Of a DNA stretch of 64,000 bases, positions 5,619-44,858 are shown one piece after another. The stretch lies in IMG/VR virus record IMGVR_UViG_3300011989_000257, positions 1 through 64,000 of that record; one strand, given 5' to 3'. The translations under genes and the position numbers were made by a program. The notes beneath the pieces are model-generated. The model had not been told where the DNA came from. It was given only the letters and a program-made list of their open reading frames with translations, and ran no database searches. Every line of letters begins with the position of its first letter. Position 1 is the stretch's first letter. The DNA comes from a virus. Lineage: Duplodnaviria > Caudoviricetes.

Positions 5619-5740
5619 AATTTATTAAATATTTTTTAATTATTATTAATTTCTTTAAAATAAATATTTTCCCACCTTAATATATTTATCTTTAAGGTCA
5701 TTTTTTATGTATAAACCCTACAAAAAATCGAAAATAAATT

Positions 5741-35678: not shown

Positions 35679-36467
35679 TTATTCATTAATAAGTTCCCAC
35701 TTTACTTCATAATATTTTTTCTTATATATTTTCAAAGCATCCCTTATTTCCTTTGTATTCAATAATGTGGACTCTTTTAAAAAGAGTAGAATGGAACTCT
35801 TATTGAATTTATTACTTCCCATTTCCGCAAAAATATCATCCCAATTCGTCATTAGATTGATTAAAGTAGTCCCAACCTTAATTTCATTTTCAGTAAGCTT
35901 AAACCTTTCCTTGTCATTTAGAATCAACTTTATATTTTTAACAGTGCTACCAGTAAGTTCAGAAAGAAATGTTTTTCTAGGGTCTAAATCATCATAAGAA
36001 AATTTTAAACTATCATTAACATTCAAAGTCTCTTCTGAAGGACTATCGTATGACGAATTTCTCTTCTGAGTCTTTATAAACTGATTAATCTTATATATAA
36101 GATAATTCTTACATATTGTACCACAATAAGAATAAGCTTTATAGCCGCTATTAGGGTCGAAACATGATAGCTTGGTCATAAGGAACGACATTGTATCTTT
36201 AAATGTCTCATCAAATTCTTCATCTGGTGGATAAAGATTATACCTTCTTATGATTGATTCTATCATTTTCGTAAAGGCTGGTTTAAGTACCTCATTGAAA
36301 ATCTTATTCTTTTCTTTTTCATTGTCACATGAAATATAATCGGCAACAGCCTTTTCTTGTTCAGCACAAAAATAATAATTCTTTTTGTTTGGATTTGGCT
36401 TTCTACCTCTCTTTTTCTTTTGAGGCTCTTGAACAATAATTGTTTCCTCTGTCTTAACTTCTTCCAT
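35679..36467 (-). CDS. Phage sigma factor for late transcription (T4 gp55-like)
   Basis: NYYF, F.KM...I...Y, FDPNSGYKAYSYCGTICKN resembles sigma region 2 of gp55; N-terminal KKRGRKP. Confidence 0.7.
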   Translation of the reverse strand: MEEVKTEETIIVQEPQKKKRGRKPNPNKKNYYFCAEQEKAVADYISCDNEKEKNKIFNEVLKPAFTKMIESIIRRYNLYPPDEEFDETFKDTMSFLMTKLSCFDPNSGYKAYSYCGTICKNYLIYKINQFIKTQKRNSSYDSPSEETLNVNDSLKFSYDDLDPRKTFLSELTGSTVKNIKLILNDKERFKLTENEIKVGTTLINLMTNWDDIFAEMGSNKFNKSSILLFLKESTLLNTKEIRDALKIYKKKYYEVKWELINE

Positions 36468-36659: not shown

Positions 36660-37088
36660 TTATCTTGCAATTGTGTATGTTATCCAATCTTTATCTTTAT
36701 CTATCTGAGACACCCTATCAAATAATATGATAGGCCATTCGCCACGCCCAAAATAGTTTCTTTCTACATTAAACATACCATTTTCAAATGCTTTATCACA
36801 TTCCTCAAACGTATCTCTAAAACGTTCAAGAGTATCACCATTTTTTAGTATGGGTTTAACTTCTATTCCATAATGTTTTAACATTATATCATACATAACC
36901 AACCCACCCTTAAAAAACGGATAAAGACTCTTAATAAAATCCAATTTTATTGATAAATCTTTATATATCATCTCTAAGACAACTTCATTTGAGGTGTTTT
37001 TATCCACAGAAAATATAGATATTCTTTTACCTAAAATCTCTCTATCATATTTATTCATTTTCTTCTGCATTTTTCTTGTATTCCTCAT
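36660..37088 (-). CDS. Hypothetical protein
   Basis: ORF track. Confidence 0.65.
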   Translation of the reverse strand: MRNTRKMQKKMNKYDREILGKRISIFSVDKNTSNEVVLEMIYKDLSIKLDFIKSLYPFFKGGLVMYDIMLKHYGIEVKPILKNGDTLERFRDTFEECDKAFENGMFNVERNYFGRGEWPIILFDRVSQIDKDKDWITYTIAR

Positions 37089-37220
37089 AAGTTTTATTTC
37101 TATGGTATATGTGCCACATTATTCCCATAATATAATGTAAACGTTTTAGTGAGAAAATGAAGTGAAAACCAATGGTTTTTCATCCAATCACACCCAATAT
37201 ACCACCAACTATTTGGGGCA

Positions 37221-38354
37221 TTATAGCATCTTAATTTTATCATATTTTTTTATCTCTTCTAAAAGTTTATCAGTGTTTTTAATTAATTGTTCACCTAAAA
37301 ATAAATCATAATCTTCGTGAGTATAATACAATATTTTAACGTTATGTTCTTTACAAAGTTCTTTTTTATTTTTATCTAATTCTTTTTGGCGTTTTAATTT
37401 CTTATTACCTCCCCAATTTTTCACAATGTCAAAATGCTGTATTCCTTGACATTCAACAGCAACATTATATTCTGGTAAATAAAAATCTAAACTTTGTAAA
37501 CCTAGCCAGTTAAATCTTTTTTGCCTTTCTACAATAAAAGACATTTTGTCAAAAAAACTATTTATTTCTTCTTCAAGCAAACTTTCTTTGCACATTGGAC
37601 AACCATTCCCATCTATATGACTAAATGGCCTCTGCCAGAATTCTCCGTGTTTTGGGCATATTATACACACTTTAGTTGTCGAATCCACATATTTAACTTT
37701 AGAATAATCGTATTTGTTGTTATGAACGATTTTGGATTGTTCAAGAAAATTATTGATTTTATTTTCTTTAATACAGTTAGGACAATTACCACCTTTCAAA
37801 TGAACAGTAGGAGTTTGCCAAAACTCACCGTGTTCTGGACAAATAATACAAACTTCTTTTTTACTGTGAATATATTCCACTTTTGAGTAGTCATATTTAT
37901 CTCCGTGAACTTCTTTGGCTCTATTTACAAATGTAGTCGTATCATATACTTTCTCATTGCATTTTTTACACCCAAAGCCATTTAAGTGTGAATAAGGAAC
38001 TTGCCAAAACTCACCGTGAACTGGGCATATTATACACACTTTTGTTCGGTTATTAATATAATCAACTTTTGAGTAATCATACTTATCACCGTGAACCTCC
38101 CTAGCCCTCCTTATAAATTCATCTTTTCCGTCTCTAAAAACATCACCCCTAGTTATATTGGCACACTTTGGACAATCTTGCCCTTTAAGGTGATTATGCG
38201 GTGTTTGCCAGAATTCACCATGTTTAGGGCATATTATGCATACTTTTTCATGCATTTTTTTATATTCTACTCTTGAGTAGTCATACTTGTCACCGTGAAC
38301 CTCCTTAGCTCTATCAACAAACTCTTTATTAGTAATTTTCCTTAACATAGACAT
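37221..38354 (-). CDS. Putative homing endonuclease: 4 zinc-finger repeats plus DUF559/Vsr-like nuclease
   Basis: 4x CIICP.HGEFWQ.P..H repeat; LDFYLPEYNVAVECQGIQHF; sense TATTTATA at 38364-38371. Confidence 0.8.
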   Translation of the reverse strand: MSMLRKITNKEFVDRAKEVHGDKYDYSRVEYKKMHEKVCIICPKHGEFWQTPHNHLKGQDCPKCANITRGDVFRDGKDEFIRRAREVHGDKYDYSKVDYINNRTKVCIICPVHGEFWQVPYSHLNGFGCKKCNEKVYDTTTFVNRAKEVHGDKYDYSKVEYIHSKKEVCIICPEHGEFWQTPTVHLKGGNCPNCIKENKINNFLEQSKIVHNNKYDYSKVKYVDSTTKVCIICPKHGEFWQRPFSHIDGNGCPMCKESLLEEEINSFFDKMSFIVERQKRFNWLGLQSLDFYLPEYNVAVECQGIQHFDIVKNWGGNKKLKRQKELDKNKKELCKEHNVKILYYTHEDYDLFLGEQLIKNTDKLLEEIKKYDKIKML

Positions 38355-38398
38355 ATTTTTATATATAAATATTAAATTAGTTAAGAAAAACCACCATT

Positions 38399-39190
38399 TT
38401 ACTCTGTTTTTTCGCCTTTAAAAATGAATTTATCTTTATCACGTTTAACACTTGGGTGAAACAAATATTCACGTTTTGCCAAATCAAACCACCACTGTGA
38501 TTCCTCACCACTTACAGTTTCCTTATAGATATTTACAAGAGAACCCTTTCTATCAAGGGTATGGTTATATCCAACCTTTGGAATGACGAATACTTTTTTA
38601 CCTTTATTTGTTAGACGAAGAAGCCACTCATACCAGAATGTAACTTTGATTGAAGGCTTTAACCCACCAACTTCTTGCCAATCCTTAATGTTGAATACCG
38701 AACCAGTTAGATAGAAATCAAAATAATTTCGCAAACAATCATGGTCAATATAACCAATCTCATTGGAAAAAGATGAAGCCCAAGCAGCCTCATTTCCGAA
38801 ACCTATATACTTTCCATTATTAAAGTCTGTAATATCCTCAAGAGTCATAAATACACTTGTATCTGGCATAAATTCCACATACTTCTTTACGTTCGGCAAC
38901 CAAATTGGTGTATACGTATCATCAAACTCAAGGATTGAGAACCACTTGAAATCATTTGCTACTGCATCTACAGCAGCATTTACAAGGTCAGCAAACGTTG
39001 TACCATCACCCTCTGAGATAATACGTAGTACACTGCTTGGAATGTTCTTAATCTTAGCCTCTGAAGTACCATTTGGTACTGAAAGACAAACTGTAACTCC
39101 CTCTGGAACACTTTTAATTGCCTTATTAGCAAGTTCTATATTTTCCTTACCAAATTCATGCATTGGTATTATCACTACTAGTTCCTTCAT
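38399..39190 (-). CDS. Glycosyltransferase family 2-like (GT-A)
   Basis: VVIIP, AIKSV, ILEFDD.Y.P.W, W.EVGG, EWLLRL...G..V..IP..GY.H. Confidence 0.7.
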   Translation of the reverse strand: MKELVVIIPMHEFGKENIELANKAIKSVPEGVTVCLSVPNGTSEAKIKNIPSSVLRIISEGDGTTFADLVNAAVDAVANDFKWFSILEFDDTYTPIWLPNVKKYVEFMPDTSVFMTLEDITDFNNGKYIGFGNEAAWASSFSNEIGYIDHDCLRNYFDFYLTGSVFNIKDWQEVGGLKPSIKVTFWYEWLLRLTNKGKKVFVIPKVGYNHTLDRKGSLVNIYKETVSGEESQWWFDLAKREYLFHPSVKRDKDKFIFKGEKTE

Positions 39191-39794
39191 TCTTTAACTC
39201 TTCTTTTTTCTTATTAATTATTTCATAAAGTTTATCTGTATATTTCTTCTTGATAACTTCATCATCCTCGTCTGGATTCTTAAACTTTTCTATAATCATT
39301 TCACTAACGTAATATACAGCCTCTGCTTCAAGGTCAACATTCGCATATTTCCTATGCCAAGGATAATTAGGGTCATCATGCGTAAGAGGATTTAACTTGT
39401 CTGCCAACTCGATAAAATCATTAGAATTAAAAATCTTACAATATTTTATAAATTTTTGGAAATCAAACTCATTTGGTTCTAAACAGCTAAGTACCTTCCT
39501 TGTCAAAGGAAATCCTACAGTTTCAAAAGAACCATCTTTCTTAAATAATCTATCTGTCTGGTCATCCTCACAAAAGATTAAAAAGATTGCAAGTTGTTCA
39601 TATGCATATGCCAATTCTTCCTTACGTTCTTCTGGAAATCCTTCAGTAAATCCCAATTGCGCCCATCTATCAGCAATTTGCTTTATTTTCTCATCAAGTT
39701 TACCACTTTTCTTTGCTTGAGCGTAAGTATGAATGCATATTCCCTTATCTGGATGTATATTCCCCACGCAACCACTTTCTAAAAATTCCTTCAT
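39156..39794 (-). CDS. Protein resembling the N-terminal region of a gp23-type major capsid protein
   Basis: FLESG.VGNI...RW..LGF.EG...E.LA..YE..A..L...GSFETV.FP..RKV.S; similarity is from recall, not a search. Confidence 0.5.
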   Translation of the reverse strand: MKEFLESGCVGNIHPDKGICIHTYAQAKKSGKLDEKIKQIADRWAQLGFTEGFPEERKEELAYAYEQLAIFLIFCEDDQTDRLFKKDGSFETVGFPLTRKVLSCLEPNEFDFQKFIKYCKIFNSNDFIELADKLNPLTHDDPNYPWHRKYANVDLEAEAVYYVSEMIIEKFKNPDEDDEVIKKKYTDKLYEIINKKKEELKNEGTSSDNTNA

Positions 39795-39795
39795 A

Positions 39796-40875
39796 CTACT
39801 CCTTCTTAGATTTAACTTGTATTAATAACTCTTCCATTTCCTTCTTTCTCCTATCGAGAACATCTCTAATATAAGCCAATATGTCAGCCTTTGTACCGTC
39901 TTCAGTAAACTCATCGACAATCTTCTTGGTCTCTTCAGCAAGTATTGCTGGTACTTTATCAGTAATCCAAGAACGAACAACGCTTGCAATCTGTTTATGA
40001 AGGGTGTCATAGTCATTGAACCATACGCAACAATTTGGTAATTCATCACCACTAGCCCAATCGACAGTTGTTGTAGGTACTTTGACCATTGTGATACTTC
40101 CACTCTTCATTGCCTCAAGTGCTGAATACATAAAACTTGCAGTTTCATCAACAACAATTGTAATAGCGCCTTCTCTTAATTCCTTTGCAAACTCTTCTTT
40201 TGACAAGTTCCTAAGTTCCTTAAATGAAACCCACTTAAAATGCGGATATTTCCAATAGAATGGTTTAACAATCCTCTTAATATCACTCTGGTCTTTTGCA
40301 ATAACATTAATCACCATTTTCTTTGGCTCAATCGTAGTACCGAATATCTTTGAAATAAATGGTCTTACCTTCCTAAGTTTTACATAAGGAAAAGCCTCAT
40401 TAAGTTCTGCTGCTTGATAGTCTGAATTGGTAATACCCTCCATAATACCGAAATCACCCCATTGCGCAGCATAAGGCATCTGCTCAACCACATAGTCATA
40501 ATTCTGTAGAATTGCAACCTTCTTACAAGGAAGATTCCTTGTCTGATTCATGACTTGTGAGAAAATCTCTGGAATGAACAATACATCACTCGGTGATGTA
40601 CCAACCTCGCCTTTATTGACATTGTAATGTGGTAAATTGGTGTATTCCTCACCTAGCCATGCGCCAACACCAACAAATTCCTCTTCAGTATGCAGCATGC
40701 TGACATCATATCCTTCATTCTTTAAGATAAGTGCTAAATTGTAAATATATTCAAGCGAACCCGACGGAACACCTTTACTATCTATGACGAAGAAATATAT
40801 TCTGTTCTCTTTCTTATCTATCTTAGAAATCTCTTTCTCGATGTTTTCAATTACTTTTAAATCTTTATCACTCAT
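39796..40875 (-). CDS. Glycosyltransferase-like protein (GT-B)
   Basis: PSGS..YIY.LA..L...GY, IPE, LS.EEFA..LRE, ALEAM.SG. Confidence 0.65.
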   Translation of the reverse strand: MSDKDLKVIENIEKEISKIDKKENRIYFFVIDSKGVPSGSLEYIYNLALILKNEGYDVSMLHTEEEFVGVGAWLGEEYTNLPHYNVNKGEVGTSPSDVLFIPEIFSQVMNQTRNLPCKKVAILQNYDYVVEQMPYAAQWGDFGIMEGITNSDYQAAELNEAFPYVKLRKVRPFISKIFGTTIEPKKMVINVIAKDQSDIKRIVKPFYWKYPHFKWVSFKELRNLSKEEFAKELREGAITIVVDETASFMYSALEAMKSGSITMVKVPTTTVDWASGDELPNCCVWFNDYDTLHKQIASVVRSWITDKVPAILAEETKKIVDEFTEDGTKADILAYIRDVLDRRKKEMEELLIQVKSKKE

Positions 40876-41203
40876 TGCTAACTTCGTTTACATCTTTTAT
40901 TAATTCATATGCCTTCAAGGTATTAAGTGTTATACTTTGTCCCATAGATAAGACCTTTGGGTCATCAATGGAGTCAAGAATATCAATGAACATTCTAATC
41001 ATATCATAACGAATAGTATTTTGTCCAGTATAATCATTAACTTTAACCTCCTTCATTTCCCTTGTATTAGGTATCATTTTCTCTGTTTCCCTATCATAAA
41101 TAAAAGAGTCAGTTATCTCAACCTCATTTGTTTTATCATTTGGGTTGCCAAATATAAAACTTGTAATATTATCCAAATCAAAAATATATGATGTATTTGT
41201 CAT
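40868..41203 (-). CDS. Hypothetical protein
   Basis: ORF track. Confidence 0.7.
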   Translation of the reverse strand: MTNTSYIFDLDNITSFIFGNPNDKTNEVEITDSFIYDRETEKMIPNTREMKEVKVNDYTGQNTIRYDMIRMFIDILDSIDDPKVLSMGQSITLNTLKAYELIKDVNEVSNE

Positions 41204-41799
41204 CCTTTAATGTTTTTGAAAAAATTATTATCTTTTATGATGTCGCTCAAACTATTATAATTAAAATCTGCTTCATCCTTATGGATATTATTGAATTCTC
41301 GATTAATAAGAACAATTTTCTTCCCCTCTGGCTTATTCTTTTCAAAAAATTCATTTCTTGCAGTAATCACGACATCGCATTCGTTCCAAACTTCATCAAG
41401 ATTTTTAGGAAAAATAACTTTTCTTACTCTAGAACCAATTTTGCTCAAGAAGAAATAAGTGGATTGAATTGTCAATGCTACTTCATCCAAACTATAGAAA
41501 ATAATCCTAATTTCTTCATCTTCGATATTCTCAATTTCTGCTAACCAATTATTGATATCCCTTGGTAGATTTTTTTCAATTGCTGGACAAGCACCAAATA
41601 TCTCAAATGGGTAATCTATGTAAATAAAATTATTTTTCTGGTGCTTGCTCTCAAACTTCAAGTATTTATTAAAAATATCTACTTTATCATCCAAATCCTC
41701 CCATTCTAATGATGGGTCGAACTCTTTCGCATAATTCTTAAGAATCTGTCTGTTGATATTTCTAACGACATGATTCAATTCAATTCCAATTGTCAACAT
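41200..41799 (-). CDS. HAD/5'(3')-deoxyribonucleotidase-like protein with degenerate catalytic motif
   Basis: IGIELNHVVR in place of I.ID.DGV.; K...L....N; CDVVIT. Confidence 0.5.
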   Translation of the reverse strand: MLTIGIELNHVVRNINRQILKNYAKEFDPSLEWEDLDDKVDIFNKYLKFESKHQKNNFIYIDYPFEIFGACPAIEKNLPRDINNWLAEIENIEDEEIRIIFYSLDEVALTIQSTYFFLSKIGSRVRKVIFPKNLDEVWNECDVVITARNEFFEKNKPEGKKIVLINREFNNIHKDEADFNYNSLSDIIKDNNFFKNIKG

Positions 41800-43077: not shown

Positions 43078-43767
43078 TTATTTTAAAATATCAATAGGAT
43101 AATATTTTCCAAACCTATTATTTATTATTTCCCTATTTTCATACCATGTTGGTTTCAATTTCCCAACTGAATTATGTGCTAATCTAATATTGGTAGTAAC
43201 TCCTATTTTACATTTCTTTGCTTCCCAATTAGAAAGGCAGAAATAAATATCGTAAAAGTCAAACCCAGAAAGTTCTCTACTGAAATTCTCAGCTATTCTT
43301 CTCTTATGCACAGCCATAAATAAACCATCAATTACAACAACTTCTTGCAAATCCTTATCAAGCAATGGGGAAAATGCAGTAAGCCATGACTTACCATCTG
43401 CCCTATGTAGAACTTGTCCAAACTTCTTCTCATAATTCCACCAAGCAGCATTGGTATCAAATTGAGCAGACCCTGCAACACCAATGATTCCATAATCCTC
43501 GTGTTCATTAAAAAGTCTTAACACTTCCTTTCCCCACCCTTTTTTCAAAAACTCGATGTCATCATGTATAAAAACTAATATATCACTATCAATTTCACTA
43601 TTTACAGTCATATCTGCATATATTTTTGAAATTGATACTCCTTCTGGATTGTGTATCATATATACATGTGTATCACACCCACAAGTTTCCTTAATGTGCT
43701 CAATAAAATTTTTGTTCTCTTCTGTTGTCTTTTTTGAACAAACAATAACCCCTATACTTTTATCCAT
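43078..43767 (-). CDS. Glycosyltransferase (GT2-like, Glyco_tranf_2_5 type)
   Basis: VFIHDD, GIIGVAG, V.VIDGLFMA, FDFYD..FCL; start moved to MDKSI, downstream of the terminator. Confidence 0.8.
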   Translation of the reverse strand: MDKSIGVIVCSKKTTEENKNFIEHIKETCGCDTHVYMIHNPEGVSISKIYADMTVNSEIDSDILVFIHDDIEFLKKGWGKEVLRLFNEHEDYGIIGVAGSAQFDTNAAWWNYEKKFGQVLHRADGKSWLTAFSPLLDKDLQEVVVIDGLFMAVHKRRIAENFSRELSGFDFYDIYFCLSNWEAKKCKIGVTTNIRLAHNSVGKLKPTWYENREIINNRFGKYYPIDILK

Positions 43768-43784
43768 AGTTTTATTTAAAAAAT

Positions 43785-43827
43785 AAAAAAAGTGAATAAG
43801 AAACAAACTCTTATTCACTTTTTTTTT
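43785..43827 (-). terminator. Intrinsic terminator
   Basis: AAAAAAGTGAATAAGA...TCTTATTCACTTTTTT. Confidence 0.8.
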
Positions 43828-43829
43828 CA

Positions 43830-44858
43830 TCATTTATTTACAGCATTCACTGCATTTTGTGAATTTACAAGTAAAATTGTCTTTTCTCTGACCTCATCCA
43901 ATGTGTTTGTGCCAAGATAGGACATTGCTGAACGAAGATAATCGGTAAAATTCCTTGTCCATCCTTCCATTGTATATTCAACCTTAAGAAGTTTTTTAAC
44001 GCCCTCGCTAGTCTTTGTTTTCTCACCATTCATAGCAATCTGTCCTTCCCTAGAAGCCATACCATAGAAAGTGGCAAATGATTCTCCATCTATTTCTTGT
44101 TTCGGGGCTGCTGATTCAGCCATCTTTGCGAAAACGCTTCCTATCATAACATAATCAGCACCAAGGGCAATTGCCTTTATAATATCACGGTAGCCTCTTA
44201 TACCTCCATCTGCAATAATACATGGCAGCTTTTCGTATTTTTTTTCTTCTTCCAATTTCCTCTTAATAAGATAAGTATCATTCACCAATGATGCCATAGG
44301 TTTATGAACTCCAGTATTGGAAGTGCTAAGACATCCCTTACCTCCACCGATTCCAACTCTAACATAATCAAAGCCAGCATCTGCATAAAATTCATATGTT
44401 TCCTCATTGGCAATGTTACCACCCATAAGGATTAGGTTTCTACCCCATATTGACTTTGCTTTCTTGGCTGCATCGAATAGTCTCTGCATGTGTCCGTTGG
44501 CAACATCAATCAATGCTCTCATTGGGAATCCCTTGAACATTGGAATCACTGGTGTACAGAAATAATGAATAAACTCGTCAAGTGAAAAAGCTGCCCATTT
44601 TCCTCCAGTTGCATATGTTACCCTAGTTTCAAGTGGGTATTGCTCAACTCTAGGCAATATTGCATGTATCTTGTTTGTTTCAAACAATGCAAAGTTTGTC
44701 TCATTCACAACAGTGTCCATCGGTGCTGTAAACAATGGCAACATATCATCCTTATCAAAAGGAATGCATTCTATGCGATGGTTTATATTACTAACAACAC
44801 ATGGCTTAATCGTCAAGTCTTCATATGTGTAATGTATTCTCTCATCTATTAGCCCCAT
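43830..44858 (-). CDS. IMP dehydrogenase / GMP reductase family protein (no CBS domains)
   Basis: APMDTV, IDVANGH, GGNIA, RVGIGGG.GC, IADGGI, ALGADYVM.GS, YGMAS, SEG, LRSAMSY. Confidence 0.9.
   Translation of the reverse strand: MGLIDERIHYTYEDLTIKPCVVSNINHRIECIPFDKDDMLPLFTAPMDTVVNETNFALFETNKIHAILPRVEQYPLETRVTYATGGKWAAFSLDEFIHYFCTPVIPMFKGFPMRALIDVANGHMQRLFDAAKKAKSIWGRNLILMGGNIANEETYEFYADAGFDYVRVGIGGGKGCLSTSNTGVHKPMASLVNDTYLIKRKLEEEKKYEKLPCIIADGGIRGYRDIIKAIALGADYVMIGSVFAKMAESAAPKQEIDGESFATFYGMASREGQIAMNGEKTKTSEGVKKLLKVEYTMEGWTRNFTDYLRSAMSYLGTNTLDEVREKTILLVNSQNAVNAVNK

Follow-up and report, generated by a model that had tools for sequence, protein, structure and literature searches.

A probable internally deleted paralogue of the major capsid protein in a glycosyltransferase operon of a large T4-like phage

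The 64,000-nucleotide stretch analysed here (the window) comprises the first 64 kb of the IMG/VR virus record IMGVR_UViG_3300011989_000257, which is 412,514 bp long and rated 100% complete. On its minus strand, between two glycosyltransferase (GT) genes, lies a gene (39156-39794) whose product begins with MKEFLESGCVGNI and derives, very probably by internal deletion, from the phage's own gp23-type major capsid protein (MCP); it is called mini-MCP here. The mini-MCP retains two pieces of the MCP only, the N-terminal quarter with the propeptide and the N-arm helix, and the start of the spine helix. Since the E-loop, the insertion domain, the sheet of the P-domain and the A-domain are gone, it is incapable of forming a shell and is no shell subunit. 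Exact retention of the residues that are conserved in MCPs, in a protein which nevertheless does not polymerise, argues for a look-alike: most likely, the mini-MCP would resemble newly made, unassembled MCP and occupy the partner of the conserved surface.

When the phage's own genome was searched with the mini-MCP, a single other place was matched, 77338-77604 on the minus strand (E 1.1e-11), which is the N-terminus of the open reading frame (ORF) encoding the MCP. This gene adjoins an acidic scaffold-like gene (G000:77676-79169) and a Peptidase_S77 prohead protease gene (79306-80064). In blastp, mini-MCP residues 1-109 align to MCP residues 1-89 with 43% identity (E 3e-17), profile-profile comparison by hhalign gives a probability of 99.1% (E 7e-19), and hidden Markov models (HMMs) of the mini-MCP family match the MCP at E values of about 1e-17 to 1e-22 among 3,783 six-frame ORFs of the same genome. 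The likeness to the propeptide and N-arm of a gp23-type MCP, put forward from recall in the first-pass annotation, is thus borne out by a significant alignment to the N-terminus of the phage's own MCP, and the motifs quoted there (RW..LGF.EG, A.AYEQLA and GSFETVGFP..RKV) are all found in the mini-MCP. The N-terminal motifs as a whole read MKEFL.SG.VGNI, RW..LGF.EG, A.A.EQ.A..L and FET..FP..R+V. Through the alignment of the MCP with gp23*, FETV.FP..R+V corresponds to about residues 93-101 of T4 gp23, with FPxxRR at 96-101, which places the motif in the N-arm, directly after the propeptide; in T4, residues 96-101 are part of the N-arm (PMC9546572). The piece also carries an insertion relative to the MCP (residues 14-34, Table 1), in which D16, I19, H22, Y24 and K28 are conserved in the close family only.

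The C-terminal half of the protein had been described as an unrelated acidic tail, a description that has to be given up. The half is only mildly more acidic than the N-terminal one (isoelectric points 4.8 and 5.4, respectively), it co-folds with the latter in one helical domain, and it holds a second, collinear match to the MCP. The match is weak in blastp (mini-MCP 150-167, YANVDLEAEAVYYVSEMI, against MCP 464-481, FHNIDAEAELTAILSEQI). When hhalign was applied to the unfiltered alignment of 83 family members, mini-MCP 150-175 was placed on MCP 464-489 with P 3.7e-4, or 7e-5 with the C-terminal half alone, only 26 columns being covered; the reversed MCP profile gave P 0.56, and 30 column shuffles gave P of at least 0.7. 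Likewise, the family HMM matches the phage's own MCP twice (independent E values 3.7e-22 and 0.002), and the same two-part match is repeated in the MCPs of five further phage records, where its second part scores about 1e-3. The match is short but reproducible: the D-x-E-A-E-L motif of the spine helix is present in the mini-MCP, and each of D154, E156 and A157 recurs in 90% or more of the 83 members. Through the MCP alignment, the equivalent of this piece in T4 gp23 is 285-297, located within the spine helix (PMC9546572). As the spine-helix residues His282 and Met284 neighbour Met98 of the N-arm within one gp23* subunit of T4 (PMC9546572), the two pieces kept by the mini-MCP are spatial neighbours in the capsid protein. 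In the family member P0170, which has a transitional form, MCP sequence continues past the spine helix (...QNDWNQTFITTINQLSHQIERK..., compared with ...QKDWNQELMTKINQISAQIHKS... in the MCP). No alignment of the mini-MCP to MCP residues 90-460 or 490-676 was obtained with blastp or hhalign. The earlier statement that the likeness ends before the HK97 core therefore stands insofar as the shell-forming core is missing, but not in full, because the start of the spine helix, a remnant of that core, is kept.

The AlphaFold2 model of the mini-MCP, built from an alignment of 50 sequences (predicted local distance difference test, pLDDT, 87.7; predicted template modelling score, pTM, 0.84), presents a single compact all-helical domain formed by residues 1-203, with one short hairpin and the last 8 residues disordered. 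Compared with PDB by Foldseek, this model had no match at E<=1; among 48,161 chains, VIA-align found generic helical matches with a best Z of 5.7; and the BFVD search had a single return, the uncharacterised homologue A0A8S5L9R4. Sequence searches with the mini-MCP were similarly empty. In Pfam, no family was matched at E<=10, including the Gp23 model that recognises the genuine MCP (Table 1), there was no match in PHROGs, and the sequence-profile search of PDB yielded noise only. Furthermore, tblastn with the mini-MCP and the family member P0075 found no match in 50,697 GenBank phage records, and an HMM of the broad family detected, apart from the MCP, no further paralogue in the phage's own genome.

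The mini-MCP is a member of a large, unnamed family for which neither Pfam nor PHROGs has a model and which occurs in uncultured phages only. A word-based search recovered 50 proteins of about 200 aa, all matched over their full length and residing on contigs of up to 430 kb. A HMMER scan of 1.84 billion cluster representatives gave 510 matches at E<=1e-3, with 86 at E<=1e-10, which sets the size of the family at 510 or more clusters at 50% identity (alignment A5); a profile scan started from alignment A3 was dominated by MCP N-termini. Typical members are 110-215 aa long and cover profile positions of about 35-165, while genuine MCPs match the profile at positions 38-102 only. Tandem doubles also occur (P0052, P0061, P0131, P0165 and P0170). 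The mini-MCP follows the family order of motifs, RW..LGF.EGL, FP..RR and D.EAE, and matches the family HMM at E 1.6e-53. All of W44, G48, F95, P96, D154, E156 and A157 are found in it and coincide with invariant MCP positions, and the sole nearly invariant positions across the 83 members are those held in common with MCPs. Nine distant small members had no match in Pfam or PHROGs, the search for related loci with P0103 and P0089 matched nothing, and few genomic contexts of distant members were seen.

Among close relatives of the phage, the order GT-B, mini-MCP, GT-A is retained in seven, in which the identity of the mini-MCP is 32-62% as against 72-91% for the flanking genes; the MCPs of close relatives are 92-94% identical, with nearly invariant N-termini. 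Where synonymous sites are unsaturated, the ratio of nonsynonymous to synonymous substitution rates (dN/dS) of the mini-MCP is 0.08-0.19, many other pairs being saturated, which indicates purifying selection; ratios above 1, as in positive selection, were not found for it. Two deep allele classes exist and are discordant with the GT-B tree, so for instance the loci L003 and L007 share 92% identity in GT-B and 43% in the mini-MCP. Beyond these relatives, synteny holds only in part. In locus L016 (G005) the gene is cut to its last ~47 codons and has no start, which makes it a deletion remnant. More distant phages show the order GT-B, mini-MCP, GT-A (G007) or GT-B, GT-A, mini-MCP (G006 and G008), G009, G010 and G012 hold the GT pair without any mini-MCP, and locus L028 has another family member in a tail module with no GT nearby. 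In view of such deletion, absence and relocation, the mini-MCP gene is accessory. It accompanies the GT pair in most cases but not in all, and the pair itself does not depend on it.

In regard to the timing of expression, the octamer ATATTTAT is informative. Throughout the whole genome, 65 of its 170 occurrences lie 15-90 nt upstream of a start codon on the same strand, and the genes preceded by it include those of the MCP, scaffold, sheath and portal and almost every head or tail gene at 62-142 kb; examples in the window are at 5667(-), 9141(-), 16093(+), 22823(+), 29421(+) and 38372(-). The octamer is likely the core of the late promoter, analogous to TATAAATA of T4. It was not found before the trio of GT-B, mini-MCP and GT-A, nor before the mini-MCP in four other loci, and this suggests that the expression of the mini-MCP, judged from the promoter motif only, is non-late. 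A scan for sigma-70-type promoters found 66, which is not above the 60.7 expected from shuffled sequence. The mini-MCP is co-transcribed and start/stop-coupled with the glycosyltransferase genes. As a general feature of the genome, a Shine-Dalgarno-like core is located 4-20 nt upstream of about 10% of the ORFs of at least 100 aa, compared to a background of about 5%, which is compatible with the Bacteroidota-type host assumed in the first-pass annotation but is no proof of it.

The functions put forward in the first-pass annotation were a decoy for host defences, a regulator of assembly and an adaptor for the glycosyltransferases. The look-alike could act on the side of the host or on that of head assembly. 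We tentatively consider the possibility that it is a non-activating competitor, a decoy or a buffer, for a host factor or sensor. According to this model, the mini-MCP would be produced before the MCP or independently of it, and would bind, without activating it, a host factor or a motif-sensing abortive-infection sensor, namely one that binds the N-terminal quarter of gp23-type proteins. The precedent is the Gol/EF-Tu/Lit system of T4, in which EF-Tu is bound and Lit is triggered by the first quarter of gp23, with Gol as its most conserved stretch (PMC3014915); both Lit and CapRel sense MCPs via short motifs (PMC13581612). Competition on the host side is placed slightly ahead of a role in assembly because the gene is accessory, apparently non-late, patchy in its distribution and shuffled among alleles; its accessory, non-late and fast-evolving character leans towards a decoy or competitor. 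A broader proposal, for which our expectation is lower, is that mini-MCPs form a widespread class of phage counter-defence proteins blinding Lit- or CapRel-like sensors of nascent capsid protein. They would then be soluble copies of the surface formed by the N-terminus and the spine helix, made before the MCP, in hosts where sensing proceeds through short motifs or the EF-Tu complex.

Several points weigh against a host-side look-alike. The retained residues could be conserved for folding alone, and relaxed constraint by itself can explain the fast divergence, given that dN/dS is well below 1. The early timing is deduced from a promoter motif and from nothing else. Presumably, only about the first half of the stretch aligned with T4 Gol is kept by the mini-MCP. 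A trigger-like motif that is made early could itself set off a sensor. No capsid decoy was found in the literature searched. Finally, Avs7, Avs8 and Avs10 bind the A-domain (PMC13581612), which is missing from the mini-MCP, so that sensors of this kind could not be decoyed by it.

A look-alike acting in assembly is nearly as likely as one acting on the host, although we regard it as somewhat doubtful. Here, the mini-MCP would bind the scaffold, the S77 prohead protease, the portal or unassembled MCP, and thereby buffer or time head assembly, for instance by blocking premature polymerisation or protease action. The propeptide, the N-arm and the start of the spine helix are all kept, and the T4 propeptide is located inside the prohead. 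The conserved residues of the mini-MCP are the conserved residues of the MCP; moreover, a T4-type prohead protease is encoded and an MCP-like LIxE|A site is kept in many family members, but the site is variable in the window's own clade (FCE, FCA, YNP). Likewise, Met98 of the N-arm together with His282 and Met284 of the spine helix anchor the portal whiskers in T4 (PMC9546572), yet these portal-anchoring residues are not kept (A151 and V153 in the mini-MCP). On the other hand, the gene lies outside the head module and lacks the late-promoter motif, and it is dispensable, being deleted or absent in relatives that have the same MCP N-termini.

It is rather unlikely that the fold was exapted, i.e., that the MCP-derived helices serve as a stable scaffold reused for an unrelated activity, with residues kept for folding. 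Such an origin would agree with the compact single-domain model and with the conservation of D16, I19, H22, Y24, F110, F112 and Y118-C119-K120, which have no MCP counterpart. As the two segments also touch in T4 gp23 (PMC9546572), a folding nucleus may be what their conserved residues make up. However, no catalytic or ligand-binding motif was seen in the mini-MCP, none of the fold matches suggests an activity, the best being the generic helical ones mentioned above, and the restriction of nearly invariant positions to those shared with MCPs is not what this explanation would favour.

The features discussed are collected in Table 1.

Table 1. Position of the mini-MCP gene, its segments and associated genes (positions in the window unless preceded by G000:C1)
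Feature	Position	Strand	Description
mini-MCP gene	39156..39794	-	212 aa; very probably a paralogue of this phage's gp23-type MCP, shortened by internal deletion
mini-MCP aa 1-105	39480..39794	-	homologous to MCP 1-85/89, propeptide and N-arm helix
mini-MCP aa 14-34	39693..39755	-	HPDKGICIHTYAQAKKSGKLD; insertion relative to MCP, gap in blastp and hhalign alignments
mini-MCP aa 150-175	39270..39347	-	YANVDLEAEAVYYVSEMIIEKFKNPD; homologous to MCP 464-489, start of P-domain spine helix
Overlap of mini-MCP tail and GT-A start	39156..39190	-	35 nt; tail NEGTSSDNTNA, GT-A start MKELVVIIPMHE
GT-B-fold glycosyltransferase-like gene	39796..40875	-	359 aa; stop 1 nt before mini-MCP start
GT-A (family 2)-like glycosyltransferase gene	38399..39190	-	263 aa; downstream of mini-MCP
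Third glycosyltransferase gene, same operon	43078..43833	-	Glyco_tranf_2_5, Pfam E 2.7e-29
HNH homing endonuclease gene	37221..38354	-	377 aa; PHROG 559 E 7.6e-75; ATATTTAT motif ahead at 38372
MCP gene	G000:C1:75574-77604	-	676 aa, outside the window; Pfam PF07068 E 5.9e-47; PDB T4 gp23 E 1e-14

The genes on both sides of the mini-MCP were assigned by different means. The GT-B gene, whose last codons contain an AAGGAG ahead of the mini-MCP start, has no Pfam match, but its AlphaFold2 model (pLDDT 70) has 374 glycosyltransferase matches in PDB at E<=1e-3 by Foldseek, of which the glucosyltransferase 8xsg is the best (E 4.5e-12), followed by GT4 enzymes; the Atlas lead for this gene is Glycos_transf_1. 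The window's own copy of GT-A has no Pfam match either, while its orthologues in L121 and L125 pass the Glycos_transf_2 cut-off of 23.3 bits with 32.9 and 30.8 bits, respectively, and an Atlas lead also supports this assignment. The location between a GT-B and a GT-A gene, as given in the first-pass annotation, is confirmed on the grounds of the Foldseek match of the former and the orthologues of the latter. Besides the third glycosyltransferase, the operon includes an IMPDH/GMPR-like gene, a UvsX-like recombinase and a thymidine kinase.

Such a setting raises the question of a partnership with the glycosyltransferases, in which the mini-MCP would be an adaptor bringing the GT-B/GT-A pair to the MCP, or would itself be an acceptor or regulator. 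We consider this improbable. It is true that the gene, despite changes of order, is always start/stop-coupled to a GT gene, down to 27% identity of the mini-MCP, that the structure closest to the GT-B model is a glucosyltransferase, and that Gtf enzymes of the Sec system, which glycosylate proteins, are among the scoring Foldseek matches. However, the GT pair is conserved without a mini-MCP in G009, G010, G012 and G005, which weighs against an obligatory adaptor, the L028 member in the tail module lacks a neighbouring GT, and the fixed position is weak evidence of a functional link, given the collinearity of the entire region in these phages. In addition, the remaining operon, with its genes of nucleotide and DNA metabolism (IMPDH/GMPR-like, thymidine kinase, UvsX), suggests glycosylation of DNA. 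Least probable is packaged cargo, targeted to the prohead core by its MCP-like N-terminus, cleaved by the protease and ejected with the DNA in order to protect, for example, glycosylated DNA as T4 IPI* does (PMC9958956): many members have an MCP-like propeptide with LIxE|A, a T4-type protease is encoded, the gene adjoins putative DNA-modifying GTs and IPI* is a precedent, but the head-module leader of this phage (MKKIIRLTESDLH...), carried by at least 5 small proteins, is missing from the mini-MCP, neither a late motif nor a conserved cleavage motif is present, and the two halves form one domain rather than a leader and a cargo.

The extreme C-terminus deserves separate mention. The last 11 codons of the mini-MCP (NEGTSSDNTNA) are almost invariant, and the tail was considered as a docking motif or protease site, a possibility rejected as it lies in the overlap with GT-A and is disordered in the model. 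No other ORF of the genome ends in this way, and the likeness of the tail to MCP residues 60-69 has P 0.64 in hhalign. Across eight loci, changes in the overlap are silent or conservative in the frame of GT-A and radical in that of the mini-MCP (e.g., ERDRNNHTDA in L007). Since the variation follows the GT-A frame, conservation of the tail is a by-product of the gene overlap.

Further observations concern the surroundings of the operon. The HNH gene and a 142-aa ORF (36660-38354) constitute a mobile insertion between GT-A and a sigma-like gene; L003 and L011-L014 lack the two of them, and L016 has an HNH gene upstream of the GT-B gene instead, beside the deleted mini-MCP. The sigma-like gene (35679-36467), located directly downstream of the GT cluster, encodes a 262-aa protein that matches Sigma70_r2 weakly (E 0.006), is conserved in all relatives (60-75% identity) and may be a gp55-like late sigma factor. 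At 41200-41799, a 199-aa protein starting with MLTIGIELNHVVRN has a HAD/nucleotidase-like beginning without the catalytic Asp pair; it shows a weak, sub-threshold prok_STING match (E 3e-4) and is conserved in all relatives with the operon.

Other sequences related to the head module were also noticed. Outside the window (G000:C1:80072-96761), at least 5 head-module ORFs (80072+, 80511-, 81424-, 87827- and 96072-) share a leader, MKK[IV]IRLTESDLH.I[VI].ESV.R[IV]..E, after which they diverge completely. With its [ILV]xE-like end, and beside the Peptidase_S77 protease, this leader is a candidate capsid-targeting or propeptide tag. In the related 295-kb phage G003, a 49-aa ORF (L023:1471-1620(-), corresponding to G003:C1:~250388-250492) matches MCP residues 1-35 at 94% identity and is divergent thereafter, representing a recent ectopic copy of the 5' end of the MCP gene, about 176 kb from the real one. 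Furthermore, the insertion domain of the MCP (residues 255-396) matches ORFs of ~470-514 aa at 26-28% identity in G002 (C1:247285-247698), G001 (C1:106394-106807) and G004 (C1:25269-25655), which points to a second protein sharing this domain that might be located at the vertex or serve as decoration.

Conservation is strong in the N-terminal propeptide region of T4-type capsid proteins, while the binding partners of this region in the prohead and in the host are poorly defined. The mini-MCP would offer a ready-made soluble probe for such partners, including the scaffold, protease, portal, EF-Tu and immune sensors, and its family, though common in large T4-like phages from rumen, gut and other habitats, is unannotated. 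As a capsid decoy, the protein would stand for an anti-defence mechanism of a new type, and as a tuner of assembly for a new class of head-assembly regulators.

Compared to known systems, the mini-MCP is closest to the T4 gp23-family MCPs (PF07068, HK97 fold), with clear sequence homology to the MCP of this phage at residues 1-85 and 464-489. It differs from them in lacking about 370 residues that separate the two pieces and about 190 that follow the second, and in being all-helical, 212 aa long, unmatched by the Pfam Gp23 model, devoid of a late motif and dispensable. In regard to the Gol peptide of T4, the EF-Tu-binding trigger of Lit, the segment FETVGFPLTRKV of the mini-MCP lines up with the start of that N-terminal region of gp23 which is most conserved, although the region is kept in part only. 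The T4 internal proteins IPI, IPII and IPIII, which have a capsid-targeting sequence, are likewise small and accessory, have an N-terminal element in common with the head-assembly machinery and carry a possible L/I-x-E site, whereas in the mini-MCP the shared element spans about 105 residues that form one fold with the remainder of the protein, and the leader-type tag of this phage, the late motif and a conserved cleavage motif are lacking. Finally, CpmB of SaPI1, a parasite of phages, mimics the C-terminal helix of the scaffold and redirects capsid assembly. The concept is the same, a small protein copying one interaction element of head assembly, and there is no sequence relation between the two; CpmB copies the scaffold, while the mini-MCP copies the capsid protein and is encoded by the phage itself.

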